Assembly (NCBI GenBank): GCA_965223505.1
Contig: CBDCWP010000030.1
Span: forward strand, 96,001-160,000
Reading direction: 5' to 3'
DNA length: 64,000 nucleotides
Source: Planctomycetota bacterium
GTDB taxonomy: Bacteria > Planctomycetota > PLA2 > JAEUHO01
Shown: in pieces, positions 3,168 to 23,130 of the stretch
Numbering within the stretch: position 1 is the stretch's first letter
Layout of the letters: each line of letters opens with the position of its first letter
Made by a program: the position numbers and the translations under genes
The notes under the pieces: model-generated
What the model was told of the DNA's origin: nothing
The model's database searches: none
What the model saw: only the letters and a program-made list of their open reading frames with translations

Positions 3168-3185
3168 CGAGCCCCCCCTTCACCC

Positions 3186-3743
3186 TTAGTGGGGCCCTAC
3201 TCGCTCCATCGATGCCCAGAACGACCGCGGGGCATCGACGACGAGCCGGCCGAGCAACAGCGGGTGCGTCCACCCACACATCTGATCGCCACGCAACTCG
3301 AGTGTCCTCGGATCGCCGGTCTCGAACTCCAACGAGAACTCGAGGTCCGGCACGGCGGCCTCCTTCAATCCGAGCCGAGGCAACGCGAGGTTGTAGATGT
3401 AGTCGCGGCTTCGAAGGTGCAGCCGCGCTCGCGTGTGTGCGGGGACGTGCACGTCGCGGCGCGAGAAGACGTCGTCGCTCGTTCCGATCCGTCCGTCGAC
3501 ACCTGGGTAGCGCACATGCCACTCGAACGCCTTGCCTGTCACCTCGATCTCGAGCAACTCGGGTCGCACGACGTCCGTAGCTGGTGCTCGGTCGGACGCA
3601 CCTGCCGTCGTGAGCAGTGGCGAGAGCAGGCAGAGAGCTAGCGTGAACGATCGAAGCACGTCAAACGCCCCATGACGTCGTCTCGAACCGATGCTATCAA
3701 CGCGTTGTGCGCGGTTCTGTGCCAACACTCGTTTCGGGACCAT
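3186..3743 (-). CDS. Secreted cytochrome c oxidase subunit II-like cupredoxin domain with degenerate CuA site (start may be GTG 3659)
   Basis: EVTGKAFEWHVRYPG, HVPA..ARLHLRSRD and QMCGWTH match the COX2 periplasmic domain pattern. Hydrophobic signal-like N-terminus. Confidence 0.7.
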   Translation of the reverse strand: MVPKRVLAQNRAQRVDSIGSRRRHGAFDVLRSFTLALCLLSPLLTTAGASDRAPATDVVRPELLEIEVTGKAFEWHVRYPGVDGRIGTSDDVFSRRDVHVPAHTRARLHLRSRDYIYNLALPRLGLKEAAVPDLEFSLEFETGDPRTLELRGDQMCGWTHPLLLGRLVVDAPRSFWASMERVGPH

Positions 3744-3990: not shown

Positions 3991-5772
3991 CTACTTCTTC
4001 TTGTCCTCGAGCTCCTTCTTGATCTCTTCAATGATCTCAGGCACGGCCGGATCGTTGCCGCCGAGGCTGATGTACTGCTCGAACCACTTGAGCGCAGTCT
4101 CCAGGTCCTCGAGCTCGTTCATGTAGATGTCGCCGATGTCCAGCATCAAGTCGACGTCCTTCTCGTTCAGACCTGAGGCCTTCTCGAGCGCCTCGACGGC
4201 GTCCTCCCACTTCTTCTGGTGAATGAACGAGAAGCCGAGACCACGCCACGCGAAGTACGACTTGTCGTCCATCTCCGTCGCGCTCACGTACCACTTGACC
4301 GCTTCCTTGTACTTCTCCTGGAAGTAGTAGTTGTCGCCGATCCAGACCACGATGTTCGGGTCATTGGGCCGCAGTTCATGCGCCCGCTTCAGGAGCTTGA
4401 GCGCCTTGTTGAAGGTGCCGAGCGCCTCGTAGTCGAAGGCGCAGTTGATCATGGCGCGAAGGTTGTCCTTCTGCCCCTTCATCTTGAGCATCTTCTCGTA
4501 CACGTCGATGGCCTCGCTGAACTTCGCTTGCGCGTCGTACGTCGCGCCGAGGTTGGCCATCGCAGTGAGATAGTCCTTTCGGATGTTGGACGCCTTCTTG
4601 AACTGAACCTGCGCCTCCGAGATCCGCCCCTGCTTGAACAAGCAGTAGCCGACCGAGTTGATGCCTTCCGCGGAGTCCGGCTTGAGCGCGACGTGCTCGC
4701 GGTACTGCTCCTCGGCCTCTTCCCACTTCTCCTGTCGCTCGAGAAGCCAGCCCAGACCGAAATACGCGCGGTGGTTCTCCTCGTCCGCCTCGATCACCTT
4801 GTCGTAGTAGGTCTTCGCCTCGGTGTAGGCCTGCTCCGTGTTCTGCTTCGCCACGAGGTCGGCCAACGCAAGCGTGATGTCCGGGTGCTCTTGGGTGATG
4901 CGATAGGCCTTCTTCATCGAGTCGATGGCCTCGTCGAGCTTGCCGTCGCGCGACAAGGCCTCGCTGCGGACCAAGAACGCCGCCAGGAACGAGGGACGCA
5001 TCGTGAGCACGGTGTCCGCCCGCAACGTCGCCTTCGCGTAGTCGCCTTCGACCAGGTCGAAGCGCGCGAGCATCAGATGCCCCTCGAAGAACTCGTTCTT
5101 GGCCTGGACCGCGGACTGAACGCGCTGGCGCGCCTCCTTGGTCTTCCCGAGCGCGTACTCGGTCTCCGCCAGCAGCAGCGTGATGTCGCGCCGCTCCGCC
5201 GGCGCAAGGCCCGCCGCGACCTGCAGCGGCTTGAGCGCCTCCTTGAGGTTGCCGAGCGCCATGTGGGCGCGCCCGACCTCGAGGTGCGCGTCGTAGTTCT
5301 TCTTGTCGGCCTTGACCATGCCCTCGAGAACGAGAAGGCGTTCGGCCGGGGGCTTCATGCGCGCGATGTGAAGTTTCAAGCAGACGAGCTTCGGCCAGTC
5401 ACTGAGGAACGACTGGAGATCCTCTGTCAACGTCTGGGGGTCGTCACCGACCTTCAGTGCCGCTTCCTGGTAGCGAACATGCGCACGGTAGTGATTGAGG
5501 TCCGCCGCGATGGCTTTCCAGTAGGCGTTCGCGGCCGCTTCCCAGCGACCTTCCTCGCGCGCCGCCTCGCCTTCGTCGTAGGCCTCCTGCGCCTGAATCG
5601 GCTTGCCCTTGTACTGTTCCCCCGCTTCCTCGGGCTTGGTCTCGTCGGCCCACGCGGCCGGTGCCATCAGAACGGCCCCGACAAGAAGCGCGGGGAGGAG
5701 GAACGACCCCAAGAGGGTCGAGACGTCACCGGCGAACGCCTTCGACATGCGGCGCGGCATGGCAGTCTCCAC
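3991..5772 (-). CDS. Secreted tetratricopeptide-repeat protein
   Basis: Signal peptide ending AWA. Many 34-aa TPR-like units, e.g. AYFGLGWLL...WEEAEEQY and AMANLGATY...FSEAIDVY. Confidence 0.85.
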   Translation of the reverse strand: METAMPRRMSKAFAGDVSTLLGSFLLPALLVGAVLMAPAAWADETKPEEAGEQYKGKPIQAQEAYDEGEAAREEGRWEAAANAYWKAIAADLNHYRAHVRYQEAALKVGDDPQTLTEDLQSFLSDWPKLVCLKLHIARMKPPAERLLVLEGMVKADKKNYDAHLEVGRAHMALGNLKEALKPLQVAAGLAPAERRDITLLLAETEYALGKTKEARQRVQSAVQAKNEFFEGHLMLARFDLVEGDYAKATLRADTVLTMRPSFLAAFLVRSEALSRDGKLDEAIDSMKKAYRITQEHPDITLALADLVAKQNTEQAYTEAKTYYDKVIEADEENHRAYFGLGWLLERQEKWEEAEEQYREHVALKPDSAEGINSVGYCLFKQGRISEAQVQFKKASNIRKDYLTAMANLGATYDAQAKFSEAIDVYEKMLKMKGQKDNLRAMINCAFDYEALGTFNKALKLLKRAHELRPNDPNIVVWIGDNYYFQEKYKEAVKWYVSATEMDDKSYFAWRGLGFSFIHQKKWEDAVEALEKASGLNEKDVDLMLDIGDIYMNELEDLETALKWFEQYISLGGNDPAVPEIIEEIKKELEDKKK

Positions 5773-9362: not shown

Positions 9363-12300
9363 TCATTTCTTCTCCCCAACCTCGCTTGTCTTCTCCTTGG
9401 CTTCCTGCGCCCGCCGCCAGGCGGGATGAATGGCGCCGGTCAGCCGCAGGTCGTCGATGATCATCGGGGTCCACGTCAGGATCTGCAGCAGGCCCGTGCC
9501 CTTGCTCATCCGGAGGCCCGCACGCTGCGTGCCGGAACCGACCTTCCGCCACTCGGACCGCTGGATGGTGTACACGTTTTGGAAGGTCGGTTCCGCCACG
9601 CCCTTCGGTTCGTTGGCGACCCAGAGCTCCAGCTTGTCCACGTTGCGCACGATGCGGATGCGCCCGCGGAACGCCGGCGGCAACGCGAACAGCTCGGGCT
9701 TGAGGCTGCCGTCGAGCGGGTCGGTCTGCCTGCTCCAGCGCTCGAAGTGCCGGCCTTGGTGCTTGTCTTGCCAGTGCCACTTGTCGCCGTTCCACAACTT
9801 GCCGAACCCCGGGCCGTCGTGATAGCCGATTCCGCGGCCGCGGCCGTAGTAGTCCACCAGCGTCTTGCCGTCCTTCCCGAGCTGCTCGAGCGAGAGCGGG
9901 ATGCGCCAGGCGGGATGGAAGTTCGGGTCGGCCGAGACGATTGCGAGTTGCACGCCGTCGATGTCGAACGCGAGCACCACCGAGCCGCCGAGAAGGTTGA
10001 CCGAAAACTCCAGGGAGATCTCGTAGCCCGGATCGAACATCGACTCGATCGACAACGGACGGCCTCGCCGAAGGCCCGGCTCGCCGGCGAGCAGGTGCAG
10101 GTAGCGCTCGGTCACCGGATCGGGCGACACGACCGCGCCGGCCTCGAGCTCGAGCCGCCCGAGCACGTGCTTGAAGTTCTTCATCTGCTCGGCGTCGTCG
10201 AAATTGACCAGGATCTCGACCCGCTTCTTGCCGTCGAGTGCCGGGGGTGCGGCCTTGGGAATGAAGCCCCGCAACCACAGCGCGAGCTTGTTGTTCTCCA
10301 GCTCCGCGTTGCATTGGCGCAGCAGCTGTTCTGCGCTCTCTCGGAACTTCTCCTTCGCTTCGGTCTCGAAGGGGTCGTCCAGGAACGCCTCGAACTTCCG
10401 CTTGGCGGTGTACCAGGAGTCTTCGCCGTGCAGCGCCTTTCCGGCGCGATAGTTGTCGAACGCCAGGCTCTCACGTTCGTCCTGAAGCCCGCGCAGCCTC
10501 TGGTAGTTGCGGTCGACGTACTTCGACCAGACGCCGAGATAGTCCGCTTTGGCCATCGCCGCCTGGATCCTGCCATAGTCCCGGAGCGCCGGGCGCAGGT
10601 CCTTCGCAGCGGCGTCGACCGGCTCGACCAGCGCGACGTCGATGATCAGGAGGGACTGTTTGTCGATGGGCCGCTTCGTCGCCCAGTTGCGCAGCTGTTG
10701 GAGCGGGAAGTCGCGTTCCAGCTCGAAGGTCTGGGTGCTCTTGGATGAGCCGCGTCCCCAGGTCGCGACGACGGTCCGGTCGTCGCCGCCGACGGACTGA
10801 ACGCGAAACTTCTGGACCGTGATCACGCTGCCGTTCGGCAGCCGTCGCTTCACGTCGGACGGCTCCGCATCGACCTGCGTCTTGACGTACTCGAATGCGG
10901 CGGCGAACACCTGCTCGAGCGCGTCGGACGCGGTACTCAGCTGATCGATCAACGCGCGGCGCGGCCAGGCGTTGGGGTCGTCGCTCGCGCGCTGCACCGA
11001 ACGCTCGATGCCATCGCGGTCCCCGGCTCGCAAGGCCTCCAAGACGTCACTCAACGTCCGCTCGAAGAGCGACTCCGCCGACTGAACGGCGATCTTGTGG
11101 CGGCTGAGCAGGCCGCTGAGCCGCACCTTCGCCTCGAACGCCTCCTCGGGATACATGCCCCAGCGCTCGAGGTCGCGGATGAACTTCTCGAGCATGTCGC
11201 GGGCCTCGCTCACCGCGTGGTCGGCATGCTTCTCCTCGAGCCGATCGATGTCCTGCTTGCGATCGCTCCACTGCGCTCGGAACTGGTCGTCGACGTCCCG
11301 CTCCAGCTTGTTCGTGATGCGCGTAACGTGGCCGGTGCGCTCGTCGCGCGCGTCGAGCGTCTCCAGCTTGCGCCAGTGAACGTGCGGTCCCCACAAGGCG
11401 CGGACCACCCTGCGCAGCGCCGTCACGTCGTCGAGAAGATCGGCGCGCAGCTTTCCGGCCTGATACGCGTCGAACGCGCGCTTGACGTGATCGGGCGTGT
11501 ACGCCTCGAGGAGTCGCTCGACCTCTCGTTCGATGTCACGCGCGGCCTTGGCAAGGGCCCTGGCGGTGCGCCGGTGGGTATCGAGCTCCGCGCGGGGTTC
11601 GGGCAGCCTGGGCGTGATGAACTCGTCGTTCAAAATGCCATCATCTTTGCTGGCGAGGCTCGTCCAGATCGCGACGAACTCCGCGAGATTGGAGGCGCCC
11701 CGGCTCTCGGCGCGTCGTACGAGTCCGCGCCAGGTGATGATCGAGTTGTACCGGATCCGCTCCTCGAGCTTGGCACTCGCAGAGAGCACCGGCCCCTGGG
11801 GCCGGTGTTGGACTTGATGCTCCAGACAGCGCTTCAGTGCGGAGTTGAACTTGAACTTGCCGAGCAGGTCATTGCACTCCGCCTCGATCTTGGCAAAGAG
11901 CTGGAATTGCCGCTGTAGCCCTTCGAGCTCTTTGATGCGTTCCTCGAGCTGCTGCGTATCCGGGGCGGAGATGCCGTGCTCGCTCTTGATCTCCTGGATC
12001 CGACGAAGCGCCCGACGGGCGTCGTCAAGCTTGCGATCGATCTCGGCCGCCGAATCGTCGTTCTCCGCCTCCGCGAGCTCGGCGGCAGGCTCTTGTATGT
12101 CCTGCGCGGTCCGGTGAGCGTCCTGCTTCTCGAAGTGGTCTTGCAGCATCGCCGCTCCGAGGCCGGCAATCAGGAGCGTGACCGCCGTAATGCCCGCGAT
12201 ACGCATGCGCTTCTTGTTGCGCCGGCGCAGCAGAAACGCTTCCCAGTTCCCCTGGAACCCTTCGGGGATGATCGATCGTCCGCCGACGATCTCGTCCACG

Positions 12301-13307
12301 TCGTCGACGACCTGCGCAGGCGTTTGATACCGAAGCGTCGGGTCCTTGAGCATCATGCGCTCGACGAGATAGCCCGTCTCCGGGCTGATCCGCTGGTTGC
12401 GCGCCCGGACCGGGGTGGGCTGCTCGTACAAGACCTTCGTGAGAATCTCCGCGAGGGTCGCGCCCTTGAAGGGCGGCCGCCCGGTCAGCATCGCGTAGAG
12501 CGTGGCGCCCAGACTGTAGATGTCGCTGCGGGTGTCGGCCTTGCGTGGATCTTCCGCCTGCTCGGGCGAGATGAACTGCGGCGTTCCCACCGTCGCGCCA
12601 TGCTGCGTCAGCTCGAGATCGACGGGCCCTTTCGCGAGTCCCAGGTCCATGAGCTTGGGCTCGCCGCCGCGCTTCGACATGAGCACGTTTCCGGGCTTGA
12701 CGTCGCGGTGGACGACGCCCATGCGACGCGCGCGCTCGAGCGCGTCCGCGAGCGCGCGCGCGATGCGCAGCGCCTCGTTCTCTGAGAGCGGGCCTTCGCG
12801 GTTGATGCGGTCGCGCAGCGTCTCGCCCTCGACGTACTCCATGACGACGTACGGGAAGCCGTTGCTCTCGCCGGCATCCAGGGCACGAACGATGTTGGGG
12901 TGATCGAGGCTGGCGAGGATCGACGCCTCGCTCTTCAGACGCTCGACGTGCGTCTTCTCGGAGATCAGCTCACGACGCAAGATCTTGATCGCGACGACGC
13001 GATGCAGGTTGAGGTGAATCGCCTTGTAGACGGTTCCCATCGCGCCGCGTCCGATCTTCTCGACGAGGCGGTAGCCCGCAATCTGCGTTTGCCGGCCCTC
13101 GGGCTCGATCAGCGCGTAGACCTGCTTCGCCTGCTCCTCGGCGAGCCATCCGCGCTTCACGAGGATGACCGCGAGCCGCTCGTCGATCTTGAGGTCCTCT
13201 GTCATGCGCTTCTGCAGCATGAAGGCCTCTTCGATCTGGGCCTCCGTAACGAAGCCGCGGCTCTGCGCCTCCTGAGCAAACAGGAAGTCCTCGTTGCGCA
13301 CGGTCAT
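9363..13307 (-). CDS. Membrane-anchored Hanks-type Ser/Thr protein kinase with large C-terminal region
   Basis: IGRGAMGTVY, VAIK, HRDVKPGN, DLGLAK and GTPQFISPEQ motifs. TM helix after RRRNKKR. Confidence 0.93.
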   Translation of the reverse strand: MTVRNEDFLFAQEAQSRGFVTEAQIEEAFMLQKRMTEDLKIDERLAVILVKRGWLAEEQAKQVYALIEPEGRQTQIAGYRLVEKIGRGAMGTVYKAIHLNLHRVVAIKILRRELISEKTHVERLKSEASILASLDHPNIVRALDAGESNGFPYVVMEYVEGETLRDRINREGPLSENEALRIARALADALERARRMGVVHRDVKPGNVLMSKRGGEPKLMDLGLAKGPVDLELTQHGATVGTPQFISPEQAEDPRKADTRSDIYSLGATLYAMLTGRPPFKGATLAEILTKVLYEQPTPVRARNQRISPETGYLVERMMLKDPTLRYQTPAQVVDDVDEIVGGRSIIPEGFQGNWEAFLLRRRNKKRMRIAGITAVTLLIAGLGAAMLQDHFEKQDAHRTAQDIQEPAAELAEAENDDSAAEIDRKLDDARRALRRIQEIKSEHGISAPDTQQLEERIKELEGLQRQFQLFAKIEAECNDLLGKFKFNSALKRCLEHQVQHRPQGPVLSASAKLEERIRYNSIITWRGLVRRAESRGASNLAEFVAIWTSLASKDDGILNDEFITPRLPEPRAELDTHRRTARALAKAARDIEREVERLLEAYTPDHVKRAFDAYQAGKLRADLLDDVTALRRVVRALWGPHVHWRKLETLDARDERTGHVTRITNKLERDVDDQFRAQWSDRKQDIDRLEEKHADHAVSEARDMLEKFIRDLERWGMYPEEAFEAKVRLSGLLSRHKIAVQSAESLFERTLSDVLEALRAGDRDGIERSVQRASDDPNAWPRRALIDQLSTASDALEQVFAAAFEYVKTQVDAEPSDVKRRLPNGSVITVQKFRVQSVGGDDRTVVATWGRGSSKSTQTFELERDFPLQQLRNWATKRPIDKQSLLIIDVALVEPVDAAAKDLRPALRDYGRIQAAMAKADYLGVWSKYVDRNYQRLRGLQDERESLAFDNYRAGKALHGEDSWYTAKRKFEAFLDDPFETEAKEKFRESAEQLLRQCNAELENNKLALWLRGFIPKAAPPALDGKKRVEILVNFDDAEQMKNFKHVLGRLELEAGAVVSPDPVTERYLHLLAGEPGLRRGRPLSIESMFDPGYEISLEFSVNLLGGSVVLAFDIDGVQLAIVSADPNFHPAWRIPLSLEQLGKDGKTLVDYYGRGRGIGYHDGPGFGKLWNGDKWHWQDKHQGRHFERWSRQTDPLDGSLKPELFALPPAFRGRIRIVRNVDKLELWVANEPKGVAEPTFQNVYTIQRSEWRKVGSGTQRAGLRMSKGTGLLQILTWTPMIIDDLRLTGAIHPAWRRAQEAKEKTSEVGEKK

Positions 13308-15067
13308 CGGTCGAACACCATCGCGTCGTCGGGGCTCGCGACGCTCTTGCGCCAGCCACGGTCATGGCGGAACTCGACGCGTGAGAAGTAGGGATAGCGG
13401 TCCAAGTACGACTTCAGATACAGCTGCGCCTGCTGGTCTTTCTTGGGATCGCCGGGCGAACCCTTGGTGAGGGTCTTCAGGCCCCAGAACTCGAGCATGA
13501 ACTCGTTCACGCGATGCGCGCAGGCGTCGATCGGGTCCTTGGCAAGCAGTCCGTACTTGCAACGGAAGCTGTTCTCGACCGCTTCGAGGCCGGCCCTCGA
13601 GATGCGGTTGCTCGTGTTCGCCTTGATCTTCGGCGCCTCCTCTTCCAGAACGCGCTCGAGCGCGATCCGGCACGGCGCGTCCTTGGCCATCCCCGTCTTG
13701 ACCGCATCTTCCAACGCCTCAACGGCTTGCTCGCGAAGCTCCTTGTCTTCGATGCGACCGAGGTGCAGCGCACGCAGGAGGCCGACGGCGGCATGAAAAC
13801 GCACGTCCCAACCGCCGCCCTCGGCGCGCGGCCTCTCCGCCGGATCCCGGAGGTACTCGCGGACGGCTTCGATGCCCTGGCGCGTCCCGTGCTGCCCGGC
13901 GTGCAGCAGGCACATGGCGAGGACGGGCGGCGCGGCGCGGCGACCGCTGTTCCCGGCGGCAACGCGGATGGCCGCGTCGAGGAACCACCGTTCCTCGCAG
14001 AAGAGCAGCATCTGCGCGGCGGCGATCGCGATCTCCGTCTTGGTGCTCGGCGTCTCGGCGATGTGCCAGAGCCTCTTCCATTCGAGGATCTTCTGGAACT
14101 TCCAGATGCAGACCCCCATCGCGAACACGGCCTCGGGCCCCTGCTTCTGATGGGAGAGATCCGCGCGGGAGAGACGCTTGAGGATCAGGTCGCTGTTCCC
14201 GGTCCACTCCGGCGGTCGATCGATCAGCATCCCGACGGACAGCGCCAGTGCGGCCGCTCGCTTCATGTCGCTGCTGTCGTCGTCGAGCGCGTCGAAGAAG
14301 GGGTCGATGTGGGGTTCGCCGAGAAAGGCCAGCGTGAGCAAGTGCGCCCACGGCGTTACGGGATCCGCGACGACCTTCGGATTCCAGCGTTCGTTGAGAC
14401 GCTGCAGGGTCACGTCGCCTCCGCGCTTGGCGAGCGCCATCAGGGCCATCGCGCGTACCTGCGCATTGTCGTCCAGCACGCGTCGCAGCAACACGCGATC
14501 CGCCTTCTGAAGGCTCCTCTGCATGGCGCCGCTTCGGTCGGGGTTCAGAATGTCCGGGACGCGACGATACCGATCGCGGTCGACCCCCTCTCGCCAGTGG
14601 AAGCAGCCGAGCGCAAGGCAACCGACGGCGCGTTGCCACGGATCCATGCTGTCGGCGTCCGCGATCTTGATGAGTGGGTTGAGGGTCTCCCACAGCTCCG
14701 GCGCGGGACCGCGGCGGTCACGCAGCGCGGCAACGGTGAGCGCACTGTTGATGATCGCCGTGTGGTTCCCACCGACCAGCTCGTCGATGAGCGCAGGAAC
14801 GCTCCACACGTGGTACTGCCAGACCAACCGCTCGCGCGCGACCGGCGTCTTGTTCTGGTCAGCGAACGAGTTGGCGATGATCGCGCGGATGATCGGGTCG
14901 TGGTGCGCGTCGGGCTCGGGGAAGAAGATCTGGGGCGGCACAGGCTCGAAGTCGCGCTCGTCTTCGGCTGAGGCGGGCAGAGCGCAGAGGAAGATGATCG
15001 CGAGCGCGGCGAGTCCGCGGCCCGCGAGGCGTCGCGTCGGGAGCTGGCGACCGGTCGAAGCCCTCAC
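13304..15067 (-). CDS. Secreted HEAT/armadillo-like helical repeat protein
   Basis: Signal peptide ending ASA. HEAT-like units (DDNAQVRAMALMALA, DVRFHAAVGL). 4-bp overlap with the kinase start. Confidence 0.65.
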   Translation of the reverse strand: MRASTGRQLPTRRLAGRGLAALAIIFLCALPASAEDERDFEPVPPQIFFPEPDAHHDPIIRAIIANSFADQNKTPVARERLVWQYHVWSVPALIDELVGGNHTAIINSALTVAALRDRRGPAPELWETLNPLIKIADADSMDPWQRAVGCLALGCFHWREGVDRDRYRRVPDILNPDRSGAMQRSLQKADRVLLRRVLDDNAQVRAMALMALAKRGGDVTLQRLNERWNPKVVADPVTPWAHLLTLAFLGEPHIDPFFDALDDDSSDMKRAAALALSVGMLIDRPPEWTGNSDLILKRLSRADLSHQKQGPEAVFAMGVCIWKFQKILEWKRLWHIAETPSTKTEIAIAAAQMLLFCEERWFLDAAIRVAAGNSGRRAAPPVLAMCLLHAGQHGTRQGIEAVREYLRDPAERPRAEGGGWDVRFHAAVGLLRALHLGRIEDKELREQAVEALEDAVKTGMAKDAPCRIALERVLEEEAPKIKANTSNRISRAGLEAVENSFRCKYGLLAKDPIDACAHRVNEFMLEFWGLKTLTKGSPGDPKKDQQAQLYLKSYLDRYPYFSRVEFRHDRGWRKSVASPDDAMVFDR

Positions 15068-15103: not shown

Positions 15104-16642
15104 TCAGGGATGCTTGAGCCCGTTCTTGACGAAAGCCCGCCACTTCTCGTCGAGCTGCCGGAAGCTGACGCCGTAGGCCTCTTTCAGCGCGTCCTTCTCA
15201 TCGACGGGCACGCCCTGGGCGTCGGTCTTCTTCGTTAGGTCGATGAACTGCTTGAACTTGGCCGCGTCCCACTTGATGAGGCAGTCGACGACGCTCCAGG
15301 CCTTGACGAGCTCGACGTACCCGAATTGGTCGGTGCCCATCTTTGCGAGGCGCTTCATGGGCGGGTCGTTGCCGGCGTTGACGAGCGCGAGCAGCCCGGC
15401 TTTCCACTTGCTGCTGTTCGCCCAGATCGGCCCCTCGGTTCCGCCGCCCGATGCCGTCCCGCCCTTGCCGAGCGTGAACGACTGGGTGTACCCGTACGTC
15501 TCGAGCTCGAGGTGATAGGCATACCCCTCGCGCAGCCAGACGCTCGGGTACTTGTAGTTGATTCTGTAGCGGGTCAGCAAGATGAGCGCCACGTTGTGCA
15601 GCACGACGCTCGCAAACGTCTTGTCGGTCTCCGGGAACTGATAGGCGACGGCCGCCTTGCGGGGGTGCGTCCACCAGTAGCTGTGCTGGCGAGTCACCGA
15701 GCGGGTCCACCCGGGCACGAGGTCCTCGCAGTTCTCGGTCTCGTCGAACCACTTCGCGAAGCGCGCATACGAGGGCGCTTTCTTGAAGATCACGATCTGG
15801 ATGCGCTCGCCGATCTCCTCCGGGTAGTCGTTGCCCTGCGGCTTGAGCAATCGGCGTTGTAGTGCGTAGAACTCCTCGGCGGCCTTGGCGATGCGCTCGG
15901 TGATCTCCTTCGTCTGGTCACCGATGATGTCGAAGTGCGGCGTCCAGTGGTACTTGACCTTGAGGCGCGCGCCAGCCTTGATGTCCTGGACGTACTTCTT
16001 GCCTTCCTCGAACCCGACTTTTGTCCACTTGCCGTCGATGAGCTTCTCGCCGCGGCGCTTGTGGTACTCCTCCTCGGTGACCCAATCGTCACCGTCTTTC
16101 ATGAGGCCCTTCTCGCGGGCGTCCCGCTCCTCCGGCGTAACCCAGCCGCCCTTGTAGAAGACGAGACCCTTGGCCTTCATCTCGGCCTCGTACTTCTCCT
16201 TGAGGTACTGCTCCTTCTCCGACGGGCTCATCCACTGATCGTCGACGAGCTCGTGGCCGAGCATCTTGCGCGCGCGCTTGTCCTTGGGTTTGAGCTCGAT
16301 GATGCGTTCGAGGAACTGCGTGAGCTCATCTTCGAAGCCCTGCTTCTTCGCCCACTTGTGAAGCTCCCACATCTTCTTGGGGTCGTCCTTGGCGAGGCCG
16401 TATCGGAAGCTGAGCTGATTGCGGAGCGGGGGAACGGACGTGTTGACGAGCTTGACCTTGCTCCGCGGCAAGGTCTTGACACCGTCGAAGGTCGTCTTGA
16501 TGACCACGGTCTCTTCGTCTTGGCTGACGACCTCGCCTTCGAGGACCTCACCGTCGGTCGTGGTGACCGTGTGGGCGAGCGCGAGCGACGGAACACCCAT
16601 CACCAGGCCGAAGAGCCCTAGAATCAGGGGGCGGAAGCGCAT
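15104..16642 (-). CDS. Secreted protein with degenerate gluzincin/peptidase MA-like domain
   Basis: Signal peptide ending ALA. N-terminal TTDGEVLEGEV motif, repeated G-x5-G/D-x-W units, and WLREGYAYHLE. Confidence 0.6.
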   Translation of the reverse strand: MRFRPLILGLFGLVMGVPSLALAHTVTTTDGEVLEGEVVSQDEETVVIKTTFDGVKTLPRSKVKLVNTSVPPLRNQLSFRYGLAKDDPKKMWELHKWAKKQGFEDELTQFLERIIELKPKDKRARKMLGHELVDDQWMSPSEKEQYLKEKYEAEMKAKGLVFYKGGWVTPEERDAREKGLMKDGDDWVTEEEYHKRRGEKLIDGKWTKVGFEEGKKYVQDIKAGARLKVKYHWTPHFDIIGDQTKEITERIAKAAEEFYALQRRLLKPQGNDYPEEIGERIQIVIFKKAPSYARFAKWFDETENCEDLVPGWTRSVTRQHSYWWTHPRKAAVAYQFPETDKTFASVVLHNVALILLTRYRINYKYPSVWLREGYAYHLELETYGYTQSFTLGKGGTASGGGTEGPIWANSSKWKAGLLALVNAGNDPPMKRLAKMGTDQFGYVELVKAWSVVDCLIKWDAAKFKQFIDLTKKTDAQGVPVDEKDALKEAYGVSFRQLDEKWRAFVKNGLKHP

Positions 16643-16734
16643 CGTCGGGATTCCGGAGCCTCAAAGCTCCGAGTATATCGCCCCCGTGGCGGTCGACGTC
16701 GTTTGAGGGCCGCGTTCGCCGGTCGTGTACGGGC

Positions 16735-17043
16735 CTAGGACTCGCTGTCGTCGTCGGTGCCGGGGCACTTGCCCTTGCCCTTGCCCTTGCCCTTGCCTTT
16801 GCCCTTGCCCTTCCCCTTGCCTTTGCCCTTCCCCTTGCCTTTGCCCTTGCCCTTGCCCTTCCCCTTGCCTTTGCCCTTGCCCTTGCCACGGCGGCGGCGA
16901 CGGCCTTCATCCTCGCCTTCCTCCGCGAAGACGGTATTGGCGGCAAGTACGGTCGCCGGAACGGCTACGGCGAGCGCGGCAAAGCGCTTGAAGAGGCTGC
17001 GACGGTCGATCTCGCTCGACGTGTCCTGCGGGCAGTTGTCCAT
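16735..17043 (-). CDS. Tat-signal small protein with (Gly-Lys)20 tract
   Basis: RBS AAGGAG upstream. Tat motif DRRSLFK, h-region and VFA cleavage site. Repeat variation is only synonymous in this frame. Confidence 0.8.
   Translation of the reverse strand: MDNCPQDTSSEIDRRSLFKRFAALAVAVPATVLAANTVFAEEGEDEGRRRRRGKGKGKGKGKGKGKGKGKGKGKGKGKGKGKGKGKGKGKGKCPGTDDDSES
16768..16887 (-). repeat. Hexanucleotide tandem repeat, 20 units, encoding GK
   Basis: Plus-strand units cttgcc/tttgcc/cttccc, equal to GGC-AAG, GGC-AAA and GGG-AAG on the minus strand. Confidence 0.95.
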
Positions 17044-17118
17044 TCGTGGCTCCTTTTCTCGGCGGGTGACGTTGGAAGACTAGGGCTGCCTCCCGGCGCT
17101 TCAAGTCGAAAGTACGAC

Positions 17119-18480
17119 ATGAGCGCCCTTCTCAGGCTCCTCTCATCTTCGGATAAGAAACGGCTGCGAACGCCGCTAGATTGCGCCTCGATCATGCACA
17201 CCGAGACTCGACGACCGAAAGCGCCGCTCATGCAGTGGCTGGGCGAACACGGTGGACGCCTCGACGGCTGCCGGGCGGTCGCGGTGCCCGGAATGGGCAC
17301 GGGGCTGGTCGCGTCGCGCGACCTGCGCGAGGACGAGACGATCTTGTTCGTCCCCCGCGCCTGCTGGTTGACACGCAAGACGAAACAAACGCGCTTCGAG
17401 CCTCTCCTGACATGGGCGCAGGACGAGGGACTGTTCTCTCACAGCATGTCGCGTCTCGCGTTGCTCGTGTTGCTCGAACGGTACAATCCGTCCTCGTTCT
17501 TCGCGCCCTATCTGAGCGCGCTCTCGCCCCCGACACTTCCGGTCTCACTCAGCGAGAGCGAGGAGGCGGAACTGCAGGACCCGCTGCTCGGGACGTGGAT
17601 TCGAGAGCAAGGCAAGACCGTCGACGAAGAGTGGCGCCGATTGTCGAGCGCGCTTCCGCATCGGTTTCCGGATATCGTGACTCCGGGCGTCATCGACGCA
17701 TCGAGCTGGCACTGGGCATACGGGCATGTCGTCCAACGCACGTTCACCGTCGACGTGGACGACGAAGAGGTGTGGGTGTTGGTCCCGGGCATGGATCTGT
17801 GCAATCACGACTCGACTTCGCGCAACGCCTACTTCGCCGAAGAGGACGGGTGGCACCTGGAGACGACGCGTGCGCTGGGCGCGGGCGAGCCGATCACGAT
17901 CCACTACGGCAAGGAGAAGAACTCCGCCGACTTCTTCCTCTACTACGGATTCGTGCCACCCGACAACGTCAATGACCGGGTTTCCTTGCGTCTGGAACTC
18001 GACGCGACGGATCCCAACCGCGACGAGAAACGCGATGCGCTTGAGCTGCTTGGCCTCACGGACAAGTGCCGCGTCGGCGCCGACGGGGTGCTGCCGACGG
18101 CGTTCCTCAATGCGGCGCTGCTCTGGGGGCTAGCCGGCGACGAGTTCCGAGCGGAAGAGACCGACTGGCGGCAGCCGGGGTTCGAGAGCCGGACACTCGA
18201 TCGGTTGGCGGCGGTACTCGAGGAGCGGTTGGCGAGATTTCCGACAACGCTCGACGAAGACGGGGCCTTGTCGTCGTCGGCACCGGCCGAGGAATGGTCG
18301 CGGGCGCTCGTGTCATACCGCATCGCGTACAAGCGTGTGCTTCACGGCGCAGCCGACGCGATCCGGACGCGGGCGGCAGGCATTCGCGACGGCACGATCG
18401 AGTCGTGCCTACACGTGCCGGTCGATCCCGAAGCGAGCTACGGACTCGTCGATGTCACGGTGCGGGTCGGTGGTCGCTGA
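17119..18480 (+). CDS. SET-domain protein methyltransferase, Rubisco-LSMT/SETD3/SETD6 class, with C-terminal substrate-binding-like domain (start may be 17194 or 17230)
   Basis: GMGTGLVASRDL..ETILFVP, S.FAPYL..L, LVPGMDLCNHD and IHYG..NSADFFLYYGFVPPDNVND motifs. Helical C-terminus with FPTTLDED...YRIAYKRVL. Confidence 0.88.
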   Translation: MSALLRLLSSSDKKRLRTPLDCASIMHTETRRPKAPLMQWLGEHGGRLDGCRAVAVPGMGTGLVASRDLREDETILFVPRACWLTRKTKQTRFEPLLTWAQDEGLFSHSMSRLALLVLLERYNPSSFFAPYLSALSPPTLPVSLSESEEAELQDPLLGTWIREQGKTVDEEWRRLSSALPHRFPDIVTPGVIDASSWHWAYGHVVQRTFTVDVDDEEVWVLVPGMDLCNHDSTSRNAYFAEEDGWHLETTRALGAGEPITIHYGKEKNSADFFLYYGFVPPDNVNDRVSLRLELDATDPNRDEKRDALELLGLTDKCRVGADGVLPTAFLNAALLWGLAGDEFRAEETDWRQPGFESRTLDRLAAVLEERLARFPTTLDEDGALSSSAPAEEWSRALVSYRIAYKRVLHGAADAIRTRAAGIRDGTIESCLHVPVDPEASYGLVDVTVRVGGR

Positions 18481-18482
18481 TC

Positions 18483-18575
18483 TCAGATCCTGAGAGCCCG
18501 GCACGCCGCGAAGAGCGCGAGGATCAGAAGCGTGGCAGCGGCCGCACGTAGATTGAACTGCGTGGGGTAGCTCAT
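18483..18575 (-). CDS. 30-aa ORF consisting of a lipoprotein signal peptide (micro-protein or gene remnant)
   Basis: GGAGA RBS before ATG 18575. Sequence MSYPTQFNLRAAAATLLILALFAACRALRI with lipobox-like FAAC. Confidence 0.4.
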   Translation of the reverse strand: MSYPTQFNLRAAAATLLILALFAACRALRI

Positions 18576-18667
18576 GGTGGTCTCCAAGGGGCCGTGCGGT
18601 CGGGCCCTACGTACGGAACTCCCGATTCGCGCCGGAATTGGACGCGCGTCCCGCCGGAAGAACCACG

Positions 18668-19303
18668 ATGCGCTATGCTCCGCTCGTGACTGCACAGCGG
18701 GACGAGGATCTGGAAGCCCTGGAGGCCGCCGAGGATCGCTCGACAGCGCTGGCAACGCAGTTCGATCGGCACCGGCACCGGCTGCTGCGGATGATCGAGC
18801 TGCGCATGGACCCGGCGATGCGCCAGCGCGTAGGGGCATCGGACGTGTTGCAGGAAACATGGCTCGAGGTGTCGGGACGCATCGCTGACTGGCTTGCGGA
18901 CCCGCGCATGCCCTTCTTTGTCTGGGTCCGTTTCATCGCCGCACAGCGCCTTCAGAAGCTGCGCCGGTACCACGTCGGCGCCAAGAAACGCTCGCTCGAG
19001 CAGCAGGTGGGACTCGGCGCGTTCGCACGCGCGACGTCGGTCGCGTTGACGGACCGCCTGATCGTCTCGGGAATCAGCCCCTCCGGCGCGGCGGTCCGCG
19101 CCGAGATGCGGCTTCAGCTGGAAGATGCGTTGGAGACCATGCCCCCCACCGACCGGGAGGTGCTCGTACTACGGCACTTCGAGCAGCTCTCGAACAACGA
19201 GGTCGCGACCGAGCTCGGGATCTCGGTCAGCGCGGCGAGCCGCCGCTATGTCCGCGCCCTCGATCGTCTCCGAACCGTTCTCGATGCGGACCGCGCTCCG
19301 TGA
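18668..19303 (+). CDS. ECF sigma-70 factor, planctomycete kinase-associated type
   Basis: Sigma2 LRMIELRMDPAMRQRVGASDVLQET and sigma4 DREVLVLRHFEQLSNNEVATELGIS. GTGA overlap with the kinase. Confidence 0.9.
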   Translation: MRYAPLVTAQRDEDLEALEAAEDRSTALATQFDRHRHRLLRMIELRMDPAMRQRVGASDVLQETWLEVSGRIADWLADPRMPFFVWVRFIAAQRLQKLRRYHVGAKKRSLEQQVGLGAFARATSVALTDRLIVSGISPSGAAVRAEMRLQLEDALETMPPTDREVLVLRHFEQLSNNEVATELGISVSAASRRYVRALDRLRTVLDADRAP

Positions 19304-22300
19304 CCGGCGCCGACGACTCGGTCGAGCAGATCCTGGAACGGCTCGCGGAGCAGATGCGCGGCGGCAAGCTCGTGAACCTCGATGAGATCGTCGCAGAGCA
19401 CCCGGCGTACGAGGAACAGCTTCGCCGTCTGCTGCCGGTGCTCTTCCTGCTTGAAGGCGCAGGGGCGCAAGCGACGCCGGCGGGGCCGTCACACGTCGCA
19501 CCCGAACAGATCGGCGCGTACCGCGTCGTTCGCGAAATCGGGCGCGGTGGTATGGGGCGCGTGTTCGAGTGCCGCGGCAAGAACGACGAGAGAGTCGCCA
19601 TCAAGGTCATTCACCCGCACCTCGTGACCCATGAGCGCCATCGGGAGCGGTTCCTTCGCGAGGCCGACGTAGGGCGCGGTGTCTCACATCCTTCCATCGT
19701 CTCCACACTGGGCGCCGCGACAGCGGACCTCGACGGCGTCGAGACGCCGTACATCGTTCTCGAGTACGTCCAAGGGCAGACGTTGCGCCAGCTGCTCGAC
19801 GAGGTCGGCGTCGTACCGGAACGTCTCGTGCGGTTCATCGGAGAGCGCGTCGCATCCGCCCTGGCAACGCTCCACGCCGAGGGAGTGACGCACCGTGATG
19901 TCAAGCCTGAGAACGTCGTCATCACGAGCGACGAAACCGTCAAGCTGATGGATCTCGGCGTCGCATTGCTCACGGAGCAGGCGCTTCGGCTGTCACGCAC
20001 GGGCGAGTTCGTCGGCTCGCTGCTGTACGCGGCGCCGGAGCAGATCCACGGCGGCGCACAAGGACCGGCAACCGATCTCTACGCCCTCGGTCTACTGCTC
20101 TTCGAGCTGTCCGCCGGCGAACACCCATTCCGACGCAATCCGCAGGGTGCCGTCGAAGGCGCAGTTCCGAGCTTGTCCGCGATTCGCGCGAACGTCAGTG
20201 CATTCCTCTCTGCGATCGTCCAGGAACTGCTTGCGCCCGACGCCGGTCGACGTTTCGAGAGCGCCCAATTGCTCGCCGAGGTGCTACGGGACGGCGACGA
20301 GTCCGACTGGTGGAAGTCACGCGAGGTCACGCCGCGCTGGCATCCGACATGGCGCCGGGGCGACGACGACATTCGACTGCACGGACGTGACGACGAGCTC
20401 GCGCGGCTGGACGCGTTGCTCGAGCGCGCCGAGGCCGGCGACGGCGCGGCTTTGGTCGTCGAAGGCGAGGCGGGCGTCGGCAAGAGCCGCATGGTCATGG
20501 AATGGCTCACGCGGCTCGAACGGCGATCGCATCCCCCACGCGTGACGGTCGCCGCGTGCTCGAGCGACGCCTCCGTGGGCACCGCTCCGCTCGCAACCGC
20601 GATGCGGGTGTTGGTCGGGGCCATGGACATCGAGGAGCGAGTGAATCAGCTCCTGGATACGGATGCACCCCTGGTCCAAATCCTGTCAGAAGAGCTGCGG
20701 GACGGCAGCACGTCGATGACACCCACGGCTCGCGCCACGGCCTACCAGCGGCTGTTGTCCGCCCTCGCACGAGAGCAGCCGCTCGTGTTCGTCATCGAGG
20801 ATCTGCAGTTCGGCGGCGAGGGCGTGTGGGAGTTGTTCATCGCGCTCGCCCGAACCGCTCCCGGTCAGCGCGTGTGCGTCGTCGGGACGACGCGGCCGGA
20901 CGTCTCCGAGAAGATCCGGCGTTCGGCAACGTCCACGCCGGAAACGCAGTGGATGACGCTGAGCGGACTGGACGCGGCCAGCAGCCACGCGCTGCTGCGC
21001 GAAGTACTCGGGCGCCGCGCTGCCGGCTCGACCGGAGCAGCGGACCTCATCCGAGCTGCCGACGGCAACCCGTTCTGCTTGCTCGAGTTCGGCCGCGAGC
21101 AGCGCCGGCAACGCAAGCGCGTCGACACGTCCAAAGGCGCGGCGGCGGGGATCCGTGTCCCGGACTCGTTGCGGGCTCTCGTGGAAGATCGGCTCGCCGG
21201 GATCGACAGCGAGGCCCGTGAGCTCTTGTCTGTCGCGGCTTGTTGCGGCGCGCAGTACGACCCGGAGCTCATCTGCGACGTTCTCGAGATGCCTCGACTA
21301 CGCGGTCTGCGGAGGTTCCTCTCGCTCGACCAGGAGAACGCCCTCGTCTCCGTGGACGGTGACCAGTATCGATTTCGCCATCACCTCGTACAGGAAATGC
21401 TCTACGAGGACATTCCGCCGGCGCTTCGACGTTCCTACCACACGTCGCTCGCTCGTGAGCTCGAGCGGCGCAGCACCACAGGGGACCGTCGGGTGTCTGA
21501 CCGCACCGCCCGGTCGCTGTTGCGACACTTCCTCTACGGCGACGAAATCGAAGCGGCGGTGCCCTATCTGAGGCAGGGTCTGGAGGCGCTGCAGCGAAGC
21601 GGCGACACGTCTCGCATGATCAAGCTTGCGCGTTTGATCGACGAGCAACACGAACGAGTTCCGCGATCGCTCCACGTCAGCGCACTCGCGATCCTTGCGG
21701 ACGGACTGCTTTCGTTGGACTCCGTCTCCGAAGCGCACGACGCATCTCGGCGAGCGTGGGCACTCTCCACGCACGAGGATCCAGCGGCGCGCGCCACCGT
21801 GGCCACCGGGTACGGGATCGCTCTGCGGCTGCTGGGACGGCAGAAGCAGTCGATCCAAATCGGAGAACAAGCGGTCACCCTTGCGCGCGAAGCAGACGAT
21901 GCGGGGGTATTGAGCGACGCACTGGGGCGACTGGCGCTGGTCTACATGCTGACCGGTCGCACCGAACACGCGCGCACGTCGGCTGACGAGGCGCTGCAGT
22001 CGGCACTCTCCACGACCGACTTCGCACGGCAAAGCTCGGCCGCTCGCCACCTCGGCGTGATCGAGATGGAGTTGTCGAATCTCGAACGGGGACGCGAGCT
22101 GCTCGAGTTCGCCGAACGAGTCGCTCGCGCGCACGGTCACCGCGACCGCGAGGCGGACGCGACCCATGCACTGGGGCTGGTGGCCCGTATGGAGGGACGG
22201 ATCGACGACGCCGTCGAGCTGACTCGACGCAACCGTGAGCAGGCGCGGTCTCTCGGGTTGTCGCGCATGGAAGCCGTCGCCTGGGCCAACTACGCCAATG

Positions 22301-23130
22301 CGCTGCTCGACGTCGGGCGGGCCGCCGAGGGCGAAGCCGAGGCGCGCGCTGCGCTGGCATTCGGCGCGACGCTCGACCACCCGTTCGTTGCGGTGCACGG
22401 AAACGCCGTGCTTTCGAACGCACTCGAGCGCGTAGGACGCCTGTCAGAGGCCGCGACGGCGATGGCCGGCTCACTGGAACGAGCGGAGCCCCTGAAGATC
22501 ATCCCGATGGAAACGGCTTTCCGAAGCGTCTACGCGGGGCAACTCGCATGGCTCGGACGGTGCGAAGAAGCGGAGGTCCAGCTCGAACGCACGAAGGAGC
22601 GTGCCGGCGCGGGGGCCACCCCCTTGATGCGCGCTCACATGGTCATCGCCGAGGCGAAATTGCTGGAGTCTCGACAACGGCCCGCCGAGGCGCTGGAGAT
22701 CCTGTCCGAGCGAATCGACGCCATCGGCACTCGGGAGCTCTTCTTCGAGATGCGGCTCCGGTTGTTGGCCGGGCGACTGGCTCTTGCGTGCGATGCCCCC
22801 GACGAGGCGCGCCGGCATCTCGATGACGTATTGGCAGATGCGCGCCGACTCGGACTGGAGGGCGTCACTGCCCACGCCTTGCTCCTTCGCGGAGGTCTGC
22901 CCGATGAGGAACTCCTGCCCGCGTACGTGTCACTCGAGGAGCAAGGCGAGGCGCTGCCGATCATGGAGCGGATGCTGTGCTCCTCTGTCGTGGGTCGTGC
23001 CCGCGCAGACCGAAAGTTGGTGGCGCAGGCACACTCGGACCTGGCGCTCGTGATCGAAAGGGTCGATGCATCCTCGCGTGCGGCTATGGAGGCGATGCCG
23101 TTCTATCGGGCGATTCGTGAGACGCCCTAG
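19300..23130 (+). CDS. Cytoplasmic Ser/Thr kinase - P-loop AAA (STAND-like) ATPase - TPR protein
   Basis: IGRGGMGRV, HRDVKPEN and DLG kinase motifs. GRDDEL, Walker A GEAGVGKS, Walker B VFVIEDLQ, GNPF, then TPR-like helices. Confidence 0.9.
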   Translation: MTGADDSVEQILERLAEQMRGGKLVNLDEIVAEHPAYEEQLRRLLPVLFLLEGAGAQATPAGPSHVAPEQIGAYRVVREIGRGGMGRVFECRGKNDERVAIKVIHPHLVTHERHRERFLREADVGRGVSHPSIVSTLGAATADLDGVETPYIVLEYVQGQTLRQLLDEVGVVPERLVRFIGERVASALATLHAEGVTHRDVKPENVVITSDETVKLMDLGVALLTEQALRLSRTGEFVGSLLYAAPEQIHGGAQGPATDLYALGLLLFELSAGEHPFRRNPQGAVEGAVPSLSAIRANVSAFLSAIVQELLAPDAGRRFESAQLLAEVLRDGDESDWWKSREVTPRWHPTWRRGDDDIRLHGRDDELARLDALLERAEAGDGAALVVEGEAGVGKSRMVMEWLTRLERRSHPPRVTVAACSSDASVGTAPLATAMRVLVGAMDIEERVNQLLDTDAPLVQILSEELRDGSTSMTPTARATAYQRLLSALAREQPLVFVIEDLQFGGEGVWELFIALARTAPGQRVCVVGTTRPDVSEKIRRSATSTPETQWMTLSGLDAASSHALLREVLGRRAAGSTGAADLIRAADGNPFCLLEFGREQRRQRKRVDTSKGAAAGIRVPDSLRALVEDRLAGIDSEARELLSVAACCGAQYDPELICDVLEMPRLRGLRRFLSLDQENALVSVDGDQYRFRHHLVQEMLYEDIPPALRRSYHTSLARELERRSTTGDRRVSDRTARSLLRHFLYGDEIEAAVPYLRQGLEALQRSGDTSRMIKLARLIDEQHERVPRSLHVSALAILADGLLSLDSVSEAHDASRRAWALSTHEDPAARATVATGYGIALRLLGRQKQSIQIGEQAVTLAREADDAGVLSDALGRLALVYMLTGRTEHARTSADEALQSALSTTDFARQSSAARHLGVIEMELSNLERGRELLEFAERVARAHGHRDREADATHALGLVARMEGRIDDAVELTRRNREQARSLGLSRMEAVAWANYANALLDVGRAAEGEAEARAALAFGATLDHPFVAVHGNAVLSNALERVGRLSEAATAMAGSLERAEPLKIIPMETAFRSVYAGQLAWLGRCEEAEVQLERTKERAGAGATPLMRAHMVIAEAKLLESRQRPAEALEILSERIDAIGTRELFFEMRLRLLAGRLALACDAPDEARRHLDDVLADARRLGLEGVTAHALLLRGGLPDEELLPAYVSLEEQGEALPIMERMLCSSVVGRARADRKLVAQAHSDLALVIERVDASSRAAMEAMPFYRAIRETP

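Follow-up and report, generated by a model that had tools for sequence, protein, structure and literature searches.

What does a methyltransferase of the eukaryotic SET type do in a planctomycete bacterium, and is the small Gly-Lys repeat peptide encoded beside it its substrate? The question is posed by a locus at positions 16,735 to 18,480 of a 64,000-nucleotide stretch of DNA (the window) from contig CBDCWP010000030.1 of the Planctomycetota assembly GCA_965223505.1 (genome G000 below), where a SET gene and a gene for a 102-residue peptide point away from each other. The roles of SET methyltransferases in free-living bacteria are largely unknown; the characterized bacterial enzymes are pathogen effectors that act on host histones, and one chlamydial enzyme that acts on a histone-like protein (PMC3980110, excerpt). 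Here, the genome itself nominates a substrate. Comparison of related genomes strongly supports the two genes as a functional couple, and on balance we consider it probable that the cytoplasmic SET enzyme methylates lysines of the peptide before the peptide leaves the cell by twin-arginine translocation (Tat).

The peptide and SET genes occur together

The two genes were taken from a program-made list of open reading frames (ORFs) with their translations. A sequence-only reading of the locus had described a 102-residue ORF with a ribosome-binding site, a Tat-type signal motif, an acidic patch, five consecutive arginines, 20 Gly-Lys (GK) dipeptides, a cysteine and an acidic end, and all of these elements are in place (Table 1). 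It had also recognized a full-length SET gene of the LSMT/SETD6 class, divergent and less than 200 bp away. This description stands: both Pfam domains of the class pass their cut-offs, and the distance between the start codons is 75 bp if the first ATG of the SET ORF is used, 150 bp from Met26 and 186 bp from Met38. The two later starts are favoured, as they fit the homologues and the 416-residue product of the gene caller.

SET homologues were detected in 4 of the 40 relatives that were searched first, and in 5 of 40 genomes when the whole class and order was covered with the window genome included (G000, G001, G003, G017 and G022). In all five, a leader peptide gene adjoins the SET start in divergent orientation. 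Directly beside the SET start of G003, G001 and G022 lies a small divergent ORF with a leader of the form DRRxLLKRFAALAxAVP, followed by GK/GR repeats. The contig of G017 stops 17 residues into the leader, beside SET, and a short contig of the same genome, which opens with GK repeats and closes with GDEADA, is probably the rest of the split peptide gene. The sequence-only reading had proposed to scan SET homologues for a lysine-rich or Tat-type neighbour, and such a neighbour is present in each of the four relatives with a homologue.

The association holds in the other direction as well. A profile of the 33-residue leader, run over the 40 genomes, reached E-values of 1.1e-6 or better only in the five SET genomes, each time beside SET; the nine remaining places scored between 0.011 and 0.092. 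Within one genus represented by six genomes, two carry both SET and leader and four carry neither. In the five paired genomes SET identity is 43–52%, the flanking genes differ among the loci, and the shared part is the peptide/SET pair alone: no other conserved ORF was found around the pair, and no match to a defence-system family at the locus. Because the pair has been kept while the enzyme diverged to this extent and the flanks changed, a functional couple is strongly supported by the comparison, and since the two genes are always found together, the GK peptide is probably the dedicated target of the SET enzyme.

Over all collections searched, the SET family comprises about 18 distinct proteins, the named ones coming from planctomycete metagenome-assembled genomes (MAGs), and the pairing was inspected at five loci of these. 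Two scans of metagenome contigs with SET alignments yielded no relative, and a scan of genome contigs returned only the same four MAGs and four irrelevant short matches. Among 401 sampled genomes of the phylum, six have a homologue of the SET protein, the sixth being a distant homologue in G092 (L018, G092:C1:35137-39330, ORF 1435-3564, minus strand). We set this homologue aside as a member of a different subfamily: the protein has 709 residues with the LSMT-type SET part at the C-terminus, its N-terminal half is unannotated, and there is no Gly-Lys peptide nearby.

The peptide is conserved at the protein level

The leader core of 17 codons differs between genomes mainly at third codon positions (pairwise differences 16:6:56 at positions 1:2:3), with 46 synonymous versus 14 non-synonymous differences. 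The predominance of synonymous change indicates that the peptide ORF is translated and under selection at the protein level. A GGAG-like site lies 5′ of all four peptide genes that have a start (window, G003, G001 and G022), and in four genomes the GK frame is maintained across indels and across the spacers PEDEPEAD, PGSGG and DRPDEDDDED. Across four genomes, 13 of the 33 aligned leader positions are invariant, and 13 of 17 in the core; leader identity is 48–64%, versus 43–51% for the enzyme. Such conservation is unusual for a signal peptide. As the leader is conserved as strongly as the enzyme, and beyond the twin arginines, the alignment suggests a specific binder.

The peptide of the window reads MDNCPQDTSSEIDRRSLFKRFAALAVAVPATVLAANTVFA, EEGEDEG, RRRRR, (GK)x20, C and PGTDDDSES, with 102 residues plus stop, and has no Ser within its GK core. 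What recurs among the peptides is the leader, GK/GR repeats broken by acidic or Gly/Pro (PGSGG) spacers, and an acidic C-terminal tail (PESDDA in G003, GDGDD in G001 and probably GDEADA in G017). The cysteine and the five arginines listed by the sequence-only reading are present in the window peptide, but they do not characterize the family and were dropped as defining features: Cys occurs in two of four peptides, and the arginine run is absent as such in the relatives. The relatives carry 15–28 GK dipeptides. The predicted mature peptides have 62–87 residues (that of G022 is cut by the contig end), with 16–28 Lys, 3–9 Arg and 8–14 acidic residues, and net charges of +11 to +25. The ratio K/(K+R) is 0.64–0.90 in the mature peptides versus 0.16 in long six-frame ORFs of the 67% G+C genome; spurious frames raise the Arg share of this baseline. 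By this measure of composition, Lys is kept in the peptide despite the Arg bias of the genome.

In the window, the repeat departs from GGCAAG at seven places, all synonymous and at third positions (three GGG, four AAA). They lie within a higher-order repeat and cannot be counted as independent events. A run of at least four GK dipeptides occurs once in the 5.15-Mb genome. The repeat number of 20 is that of the assembly; the contigs of four public runs all end at 16742-16904. The GGCAAG array also breaks short-read assemblies elsewhere, at the end of G017:C464, the start of G017:C387 and the end of G022:C83; for this reason the repeat numbers of these peptides are uncertain, and MAGs probably under-report the copies. 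Long alternative frames cross the GK repeat of the window (16725-17083): those of the plus strand encode Cys-Pro and Pro-Leu repeats, and one of the minus strand encodes an Ala-Arg repeat. In the relatives, such frames exceed the real peptide gene in length. A search of a collection of 5.8 billion proteins with the leader gave no match, with the window's own peptide missing too, probably because gene callers miss the ORF in favour of the longer overlapping frames.

GK runs are found outside the family. The nucleotide pattern (GGNAAR)6 is present in 20 of the 401 phylum genomes, at four family loci and 16 others; the runs at the latter are in frames that lack a start codon or form part of larger ORFs unrelated to the peptide, and on inspection none of the 16 has the leader and none of these genomes has the SET enzyme. 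The sequence-only reading had cautioned that GK runs occur in other secreted planctomycete proteins and that the adjacency could be due to chance. The caveat is correct as to the runs, but these have neither leader nor SET neighbour, which argues against a chance pairing. Shorter GK runs at four loci (L046, L048, L051 and L052) are embedded in unrelated larger ORFs without a SET neighbour; the ORFs hosting GK runs include a 294-residue protein with an N-terminal hydrophobic segment, a 622-residue Lys/Pro-rich repeat protein and a 510-residue protein with a Lys-rich N-terminal extension.

The enzyme belongs to the LSMT/SETD3/SETD6 class

The SET domain (PF00856) of the window enzyme scores 30.6 bits against a cut-off of 22.4, and the Rubisco-LSMT substrate-binding domain (PF09273) 37.4 bits against 21.6. 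Searching the sequences of the Protein Data Bank (PDB) with the enzyme retrieved SETD3 (8.3e-25), LSMT (2.9e-15) and PAP7/pTAC14 (1e-5). The AlphaFold (AF2) model has a mean predicted local distance difference test score (pLDDT) of 86.3 and a predicted template-modelling score (pTM) of 0.85. When used as a Foldseek query, it matched SETD3, LSMT and SETD6 over its full length (template-modelling scores 0.63–0.73, 414–446 aligned columns) at 20–24% sequence identity. The enzyme thus falls into the LSMT/SETD3/SETD6 class.

Five residues, Phe184, Asn204, His205, Ile236 and Tyr238, are invariant in the alignment of 17 family members. In the HMMER alignment, the Asn-His pair coincides with the cofactor motif of SETD3, Ile236 with Ile310 and Tyr238 with Tyr312, and Phe184 and Met200 stand at the positions of SETD3 Asn255 and Trp273. 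Asn255 of SETD3 forms a hydrogen bond with the histidine to be methylated; SETD6 and LSMT, which are lysine methylases, have Phe at this position and Ala at that of Trp273 (PMC6684798, excerpt). The pocket Phe and Ile of the window enzyme match LSMT, whereas its Met corresponds to Ala in LSMT and SETD6 and to Trp in SETD3. Over 149 aligned rows of the wider superfamily, the SETD3-255 site is Phe in 86 and Asn in 27; among the matches listed (45 of the 149 rows), the second pocket position is Trp in nearly all rows with Asn. Because the catalytic Asn-His and Tyr are invariant and Phe occupies the Asn255 site, the protein is predicted to be an active lysine methylase, with a pocket of the lysine rather than the histidine type. 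It has no N-terminal hydrophobic signal peptide, and it is acidic, as are all 17 family members (net charge −12 to −38).

A profile of the family found 8707 relatives among 1.84 billion representative sequences, with a jump in E-value from 2.4e-130 to 5.3e-52 past the family. Ten of the next-best clusters were looked up. Five of them name an organism, and all five are eukaryotic SETD3-like proteins, from Ancoracysta, Aphanomyces, Mastigamoeba, an insect and a mollusc. Since the named next-best clusters are all eukaryotic, the label 'eukaryote-like' that the enzyme had been given is fair, and acquisition of the gene from a eukaryote is plausible from these matches. The window genome has two more SET-domain genes outside the window, with much shorter frames (C10:106081-106350, L068, and C33:3500-3634, L070).

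The leader carries a Tat-type motif

The leader motif, D-R-R-[SGN]-L-[LF]-[KR], has invariant twin arginines and an invariant Leu, and matches the Tat consensus S-R-R-x-F-L-K (PMC6708511, excerpt) in the arginine pair, the hydrophobic pair and the basic residue. It is followed by a hydrophobic region of 15–21 residues, and by reading, the four leaders end in small-x-small sites of the Ala-x-Ala type (VFA, AEA, AAA and AEA). The genome of the window encodes the Tat machinery, with a TatC (4.2e-66) and two TatA-type proteins (1.2e-12 and 1.0e-7). Tat accepts unstructured hydrophilic cargo of 100–120 residues, and basic residues close to the site of cleavage help to keep a protein out of the Sec pathway (PMC6708511, excerpt). 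A hydrophilic polycation of 60–90 residues, as predicted here, would fit these cargo limits and the avoidance of Sec. We infer that the peptide is exported by Tat and cleaved at the small-x-small site.

A model for the two-gene module

We propose that the pair is a two-gene module, in which a cytoplasmic SET enzyme of the LSMT/SETD3/SETD6 class would modify the lysines of the divergently encoded Gly-Lys peptide. The Tat-type leader probably has two functions, as a handle for the enzyme, like the leader of a peptide made by the ribosome and modified after translation (RiPP) or the binding site of a Tat chaperone, and as an export signal. The methylated peptide, a short, unstructured and hydrophilic polycation, would then exit via Tat, and signal peptidase would cut after the Ala-x-Ala-type site. 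The product would be a methyl-lysine polycation of 60–90 residues, resistant to trypsin-like proteases, which may bind polyanions within the periplasm, at the cell surface or extracellularly. The sequence-only reading had likewise proposed poly-methylation followed by export as a permanently cationic polymer; a permanent charge would depend on the degree of methylation (mono, di or tri). Cytoplasmic methylation before export is the reading that we hold on balance probable; transfer of methyl groups to the peptide, leader recognition, export, the cleavage site and the function of the mature peptide are inferred. A more far-reaching version is possible but tentative: a recruited, probably eukaryote-derived SET enzyme may dock on the Tat leader and di- or trimethylate the 15–28 lysines, so that Tat exports a gene-encoded bacterial poly(methyl-lysine), a quaternary-ammonium-like polycation that could serve as an extracellular antimicrobial, an adhesive, or a polyanion or mineral binder.

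In this far-reaching version, the locus would hold the first bacterial case of a SET enzyme that is genetically paired with its substrate, and represent a new class of leader-guided peptide modification. If the model is correct, lysine methylation by SET enzymes would join the repertoire of such modifications. It would also provide a natural Tat cargo that is polycationic as well as short and unstructured, a likely case of a eukaryote-type enzyme with a new bacterial job, and a route to gene-encoded methyl-lysine polycations as protease-resistant polyanion binders.

Several observations weigh against the model. The five loci all come from one family of uncultured planctomycetes, and as the paired genomes are kin they do not represent five independent events; moreover, the peptide of G017 is split over two contigs and that of G022 is cut at a contig end. 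The 3–9 arginines per peptide stand at repeat positions and are beyond the reach of a SET lysine methylase, so that charge, and not Lys alone, is partly what is conserved. Enzymes and their substrates are more typically encoded in one operon than divergently, and there is no RNA run among the public sequencing runs listed for the locus. The acidity of the enzyme is weak evidence, as it is common for cytoplasmic proteins. With respect to export, the Tat-signal profile TIGR01409 (cut-off 16.7 bits) gave sub-threshold scores of 14.4 and 11 bits for two of the four leaders and no match for the leaders of the window and G003; because the cut-off is not reached, the Tat assignment rests on reading of the motif. 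Finally, to carry a net charge of +11 to +25 outward demands much energy, and methylation gives no relief.

Some of these observations would be explained if the two proteins are linked but the peptide is not a methyl acceptor, being co-regulated only, or acting as a pseudo-substrate or regulator of the enzyme, or being a toxic polycation that SET chaperones until export. The divergent arrangement is in line with this, as is the occurrence of Arg in place of Lys at some repeat positions, and a strongly acidic enzyme could simply sequester a polycation. We nevertheless consider it unlikely: the catalytic and S-adenosylmethionine-binding residues, invariant in 17 members, would be needless for a mere chaperone, Lys dominates despite the Arg bias, enzyme and peptide co-occur exactly, and there is no other conserved neighbour. 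We regard as similarly unlikely, and if anything slightly more so, that the two are enzyme and substrate but that the polycationic tail stays in the cytoplasm behind a membrane anchor or unused signal, where it would bind nucleic acid, polyphosphate or acidic lipids and be tuned by SET, as a bacterial counterpart of the histone tail and its methylase. The positive-inside rule, by which basic segments are kept cytoplasmic, favours such a location for a tail of +11 to +25, and GK-rich sequence resembles the tails of histones H4 and H2A.Z. The sub-threshold Tat profile and the hydrophobic region of the G000 leader, with 20 residues and fairly hydrophobic by hand estimate, point the same way, and chlamydial cpnSET, which methylates the lysine-rich histone-like protein Hc1, offers a precedent (PMC3980110, excerpt). 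Against retention, the invariant RR-x-L-L/F-K/R motif lies on the N-terminal side of the hydrophobic region, exactly where a Tat motif belongs, and all four leaders close in a small-x-small site; in G003 the hydrophobic region has about 15 residues and is followed by AEA and RGRG, which fits a cleavable signal and not a transmembrane helix.

The remaining explanations separate the two genes. SET might be an effector against the histones or actin of a eukaryotic host, as in Legionella and Chlamydia, with the peptide unrelated to its activity. Bacterial SET effectors are known (PMC3980110, excerpt), and the nearest named outgroup clusters are eukaryotic SETD3-like proteins, but the enzyme has neither a secretion signal nor effector-type domains, its pocket is not of the Asn/Trp type of SETD3, and the strict pairing at five of five loci amid differing flanks would be left unexplained; we judge this explanation very improbable. 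Hardly credible, and contradicted by the comparative data, is that the small ORF is no gene at all, but a GGCAAG microsatellite by the SET promoter that adjoins SET by chance. The peptide is indeed missing among the called proteins of the 5.8-billion-protein collection, long antisense frames cross the repeat, and (GGNAAR)6 runs exist in 16 other genomes of the 401. A microsatellite would not, however, keep a leader at the protein level with mostly synonymous change, hold the GK frame through indels and spacers in four genomes, be preceded by ribosome-binding sites, or have its leader confined to SET genomes.

Comparison with known systems

With Rubisco LSMT, SETD6 and SETD3, the window enzyme shares the full-length two-domain architecture, both Pfam domains, the Asn-His motif and the catalytic Tyr. 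It differs in belonging to a tight bacterial clade behind a score gap, and in its presumed target: each known enzyme modifies a single residue in a folded protein, whereas the candidate substrate here is a repeat of 15–28 lysines in a disordered peptide encoded alongside.

The small precursor gene beside a presumed tailoring enzyme, with a leader conserved at the N-terminus and a repetitive core that varies (five of five loci), resembles RiPP pairs. Unlike in RiPP pairs, the leader resembles a general Tat signal. Neither the domains of the enzyme nor the flanks of the pair contain a RiPP recognition element, a dedicated protease or a transporter, and as all three are absent from the cluster, we did not file the pair as a RiPP system. 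A full-text literature search on RiPP pathways with a SET-domain enzyme gave no such enzyme among the matches listed, and neither this search nor one on SET domains in Planctomycetes gave a description of such a pair among the matches listed.

The mycobacterial surface adhesins HBHA and laminin-binding protein have methylated lysine-rich repeats. Methylation of HBHA, which has an Ala/Pro/Lys-rich repeat, protects it against proteolysis. HBHA is like the predicted peptide a methylated bacterial surface protein, and binds polyanions (heparan sulfate) via a C-terminal lysine-rich domain (PMC8467707, excerpt). It differs in having another repeat and a large folded body, and in lacking both an adjacent SET gene and a leader of the Tat type.

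Diatom silaffins are Ser/Lys-rich, phosphorylated and polyamine-modified. They are secreted lysine-rich peptides with methylated lysines, for which diatom-specific SET enzymes have been proposed as modifiers (Nemoto et al. 2020, as cited in PMC11151724, excerpt). Unlike the planctomycete peptides they are eukaryotic and modified in the secretory pathway, there is no sequence relation, and the GK core lacks Ser. No Ser/Lys-rich repeats and no mineral-related neighbour were found at the locus; any likeness would be one of function only.

TorD and DmsD are dedicated Tat chaperones that bind the leader. Their substrates resemble the proposed cargo in that cytoplasmic maturation precedes export, and conservation of the leader beyond the twin arginines hints at a specific cytoplasmic binder here as well; these chaperones are not enzymes of the SET fold, and what they accompany is a folded protein that contains a cofactor.

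A further bacterial parallel is chlamydial cpnSET with the histone-like Hc1/Hc2, in which a SET enzyme methylates an endogenous lysine-rich basic protein (PMC3980110, excerpt). It has a minimal SET domain that is not of the LSMT class, and its substrate is a cytoplasmic nucleoid protein. The excerpted part of the source does not present the cpnSET and Hc1 genes as a conserved neighbouring pair (PMC3980110).

Features and neighbours of the locus

The coordinates of the features in the window are listed in Table 1. The stretch 16400-18700 yielded neither a sigma-70-like promoter nor an intrinsic terminator, no conserved DNA motif was found among four intergenic regions, and no compositional anomaly was seen.

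Table 1. Features of the peptide/SET locus, in window coordinates.
Feature	Position	Strand	Basis or remark
Precursor peptide gene	16735..17043	-	ORF translation; homologues adjoin SET in G003, G001, G022 and G017
C-terminal tail CPGTDDDSES	16738..16767	-	Translation
(GK)x20 core, residues 53-92, uninterrupted	16768..16887	-	Translation
Acidic patch EEGEDEG and five Arg, residues 41-52	16888..16923	-	Translation
Tat-type signal/leader, residues 1-40	16924..17043	-	Motif reading; leader profile; alignment
Twin-arginine motif DRRSLFK	16987-17007	-	Followed by Ala-rich hydrophobic region, with VFA before predicted cleavage point
Ribosome-binding site AAGGAG	17050..17055	-	Ends 7 nt 5′ of peptide ATG
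Divergent intergenic region	17044..17193	.	Presumed to hold both promoters
SET methyltransferase gene, longest ORF 453 aa	17119..18480	+	Likely start 17194 (Met26) or 17230 (Met38)
SET catalytic domain with inserted helical region, residues 60-264	17296..17910	+	Pfam SET
Pocket and cofactor residues	Phe 17743-17745; Asn-His 17803-17808; Tyr 17905-17907	+	Alignment to SETD3
C-terminal helical domain of Rubisco-LSMT substrate-binding type, residues 296-408	18004..18342	+	PF09273; model helices

Downstream of the peptide gene in the window lie genes for a 512-residue Lys/Glu-rich protein (15104-16642, minus strand), which has a signal-like segment at the N-terminus, falls in no Pfam family and matches Lepto_7_Nterm weakly, and for a 587-residue HEAT-repeat protein (13304-15067, minus strand); neither recurs beside the pair elsewhere. 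In G001 the pair is flanked by genes for a MacB-type permease and a tRNA synthetase. In G022, the genes downstream of SET encode an ATP-grasp ligase that is RimK-like and includes a TrkA_C domain (L008:2460-4091, minus strand) and, next to it, an AstE/AspA-type deacylase (4491-5438, plus strand).

The flanks in G003 include a kinase-caspase fusion and a rhomboid protein. The fusion, a 615-residue protein with protein kinase and caspase (Peptidase_C14) parts, is encoded directly downstream of the peptide gene (L006:1548-3392, minus strand). Large kinase genes flank the pair in the window also (9363-13307 and 19300-23130), possibly by chance. The second of these (plus strand) encodes a 1276-residue Ser/Thr kinase with AAA_16 and tetratricopeptide repeat (TPR) regions, and its start overlaps by 4 nt with the gene of an ECF-type sigma factor (18638-19303, plus strand). 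This sigma-kinase pair, just downstream of SET in the window and not beside the SET pair in the other genomes, looks translationally coupled.

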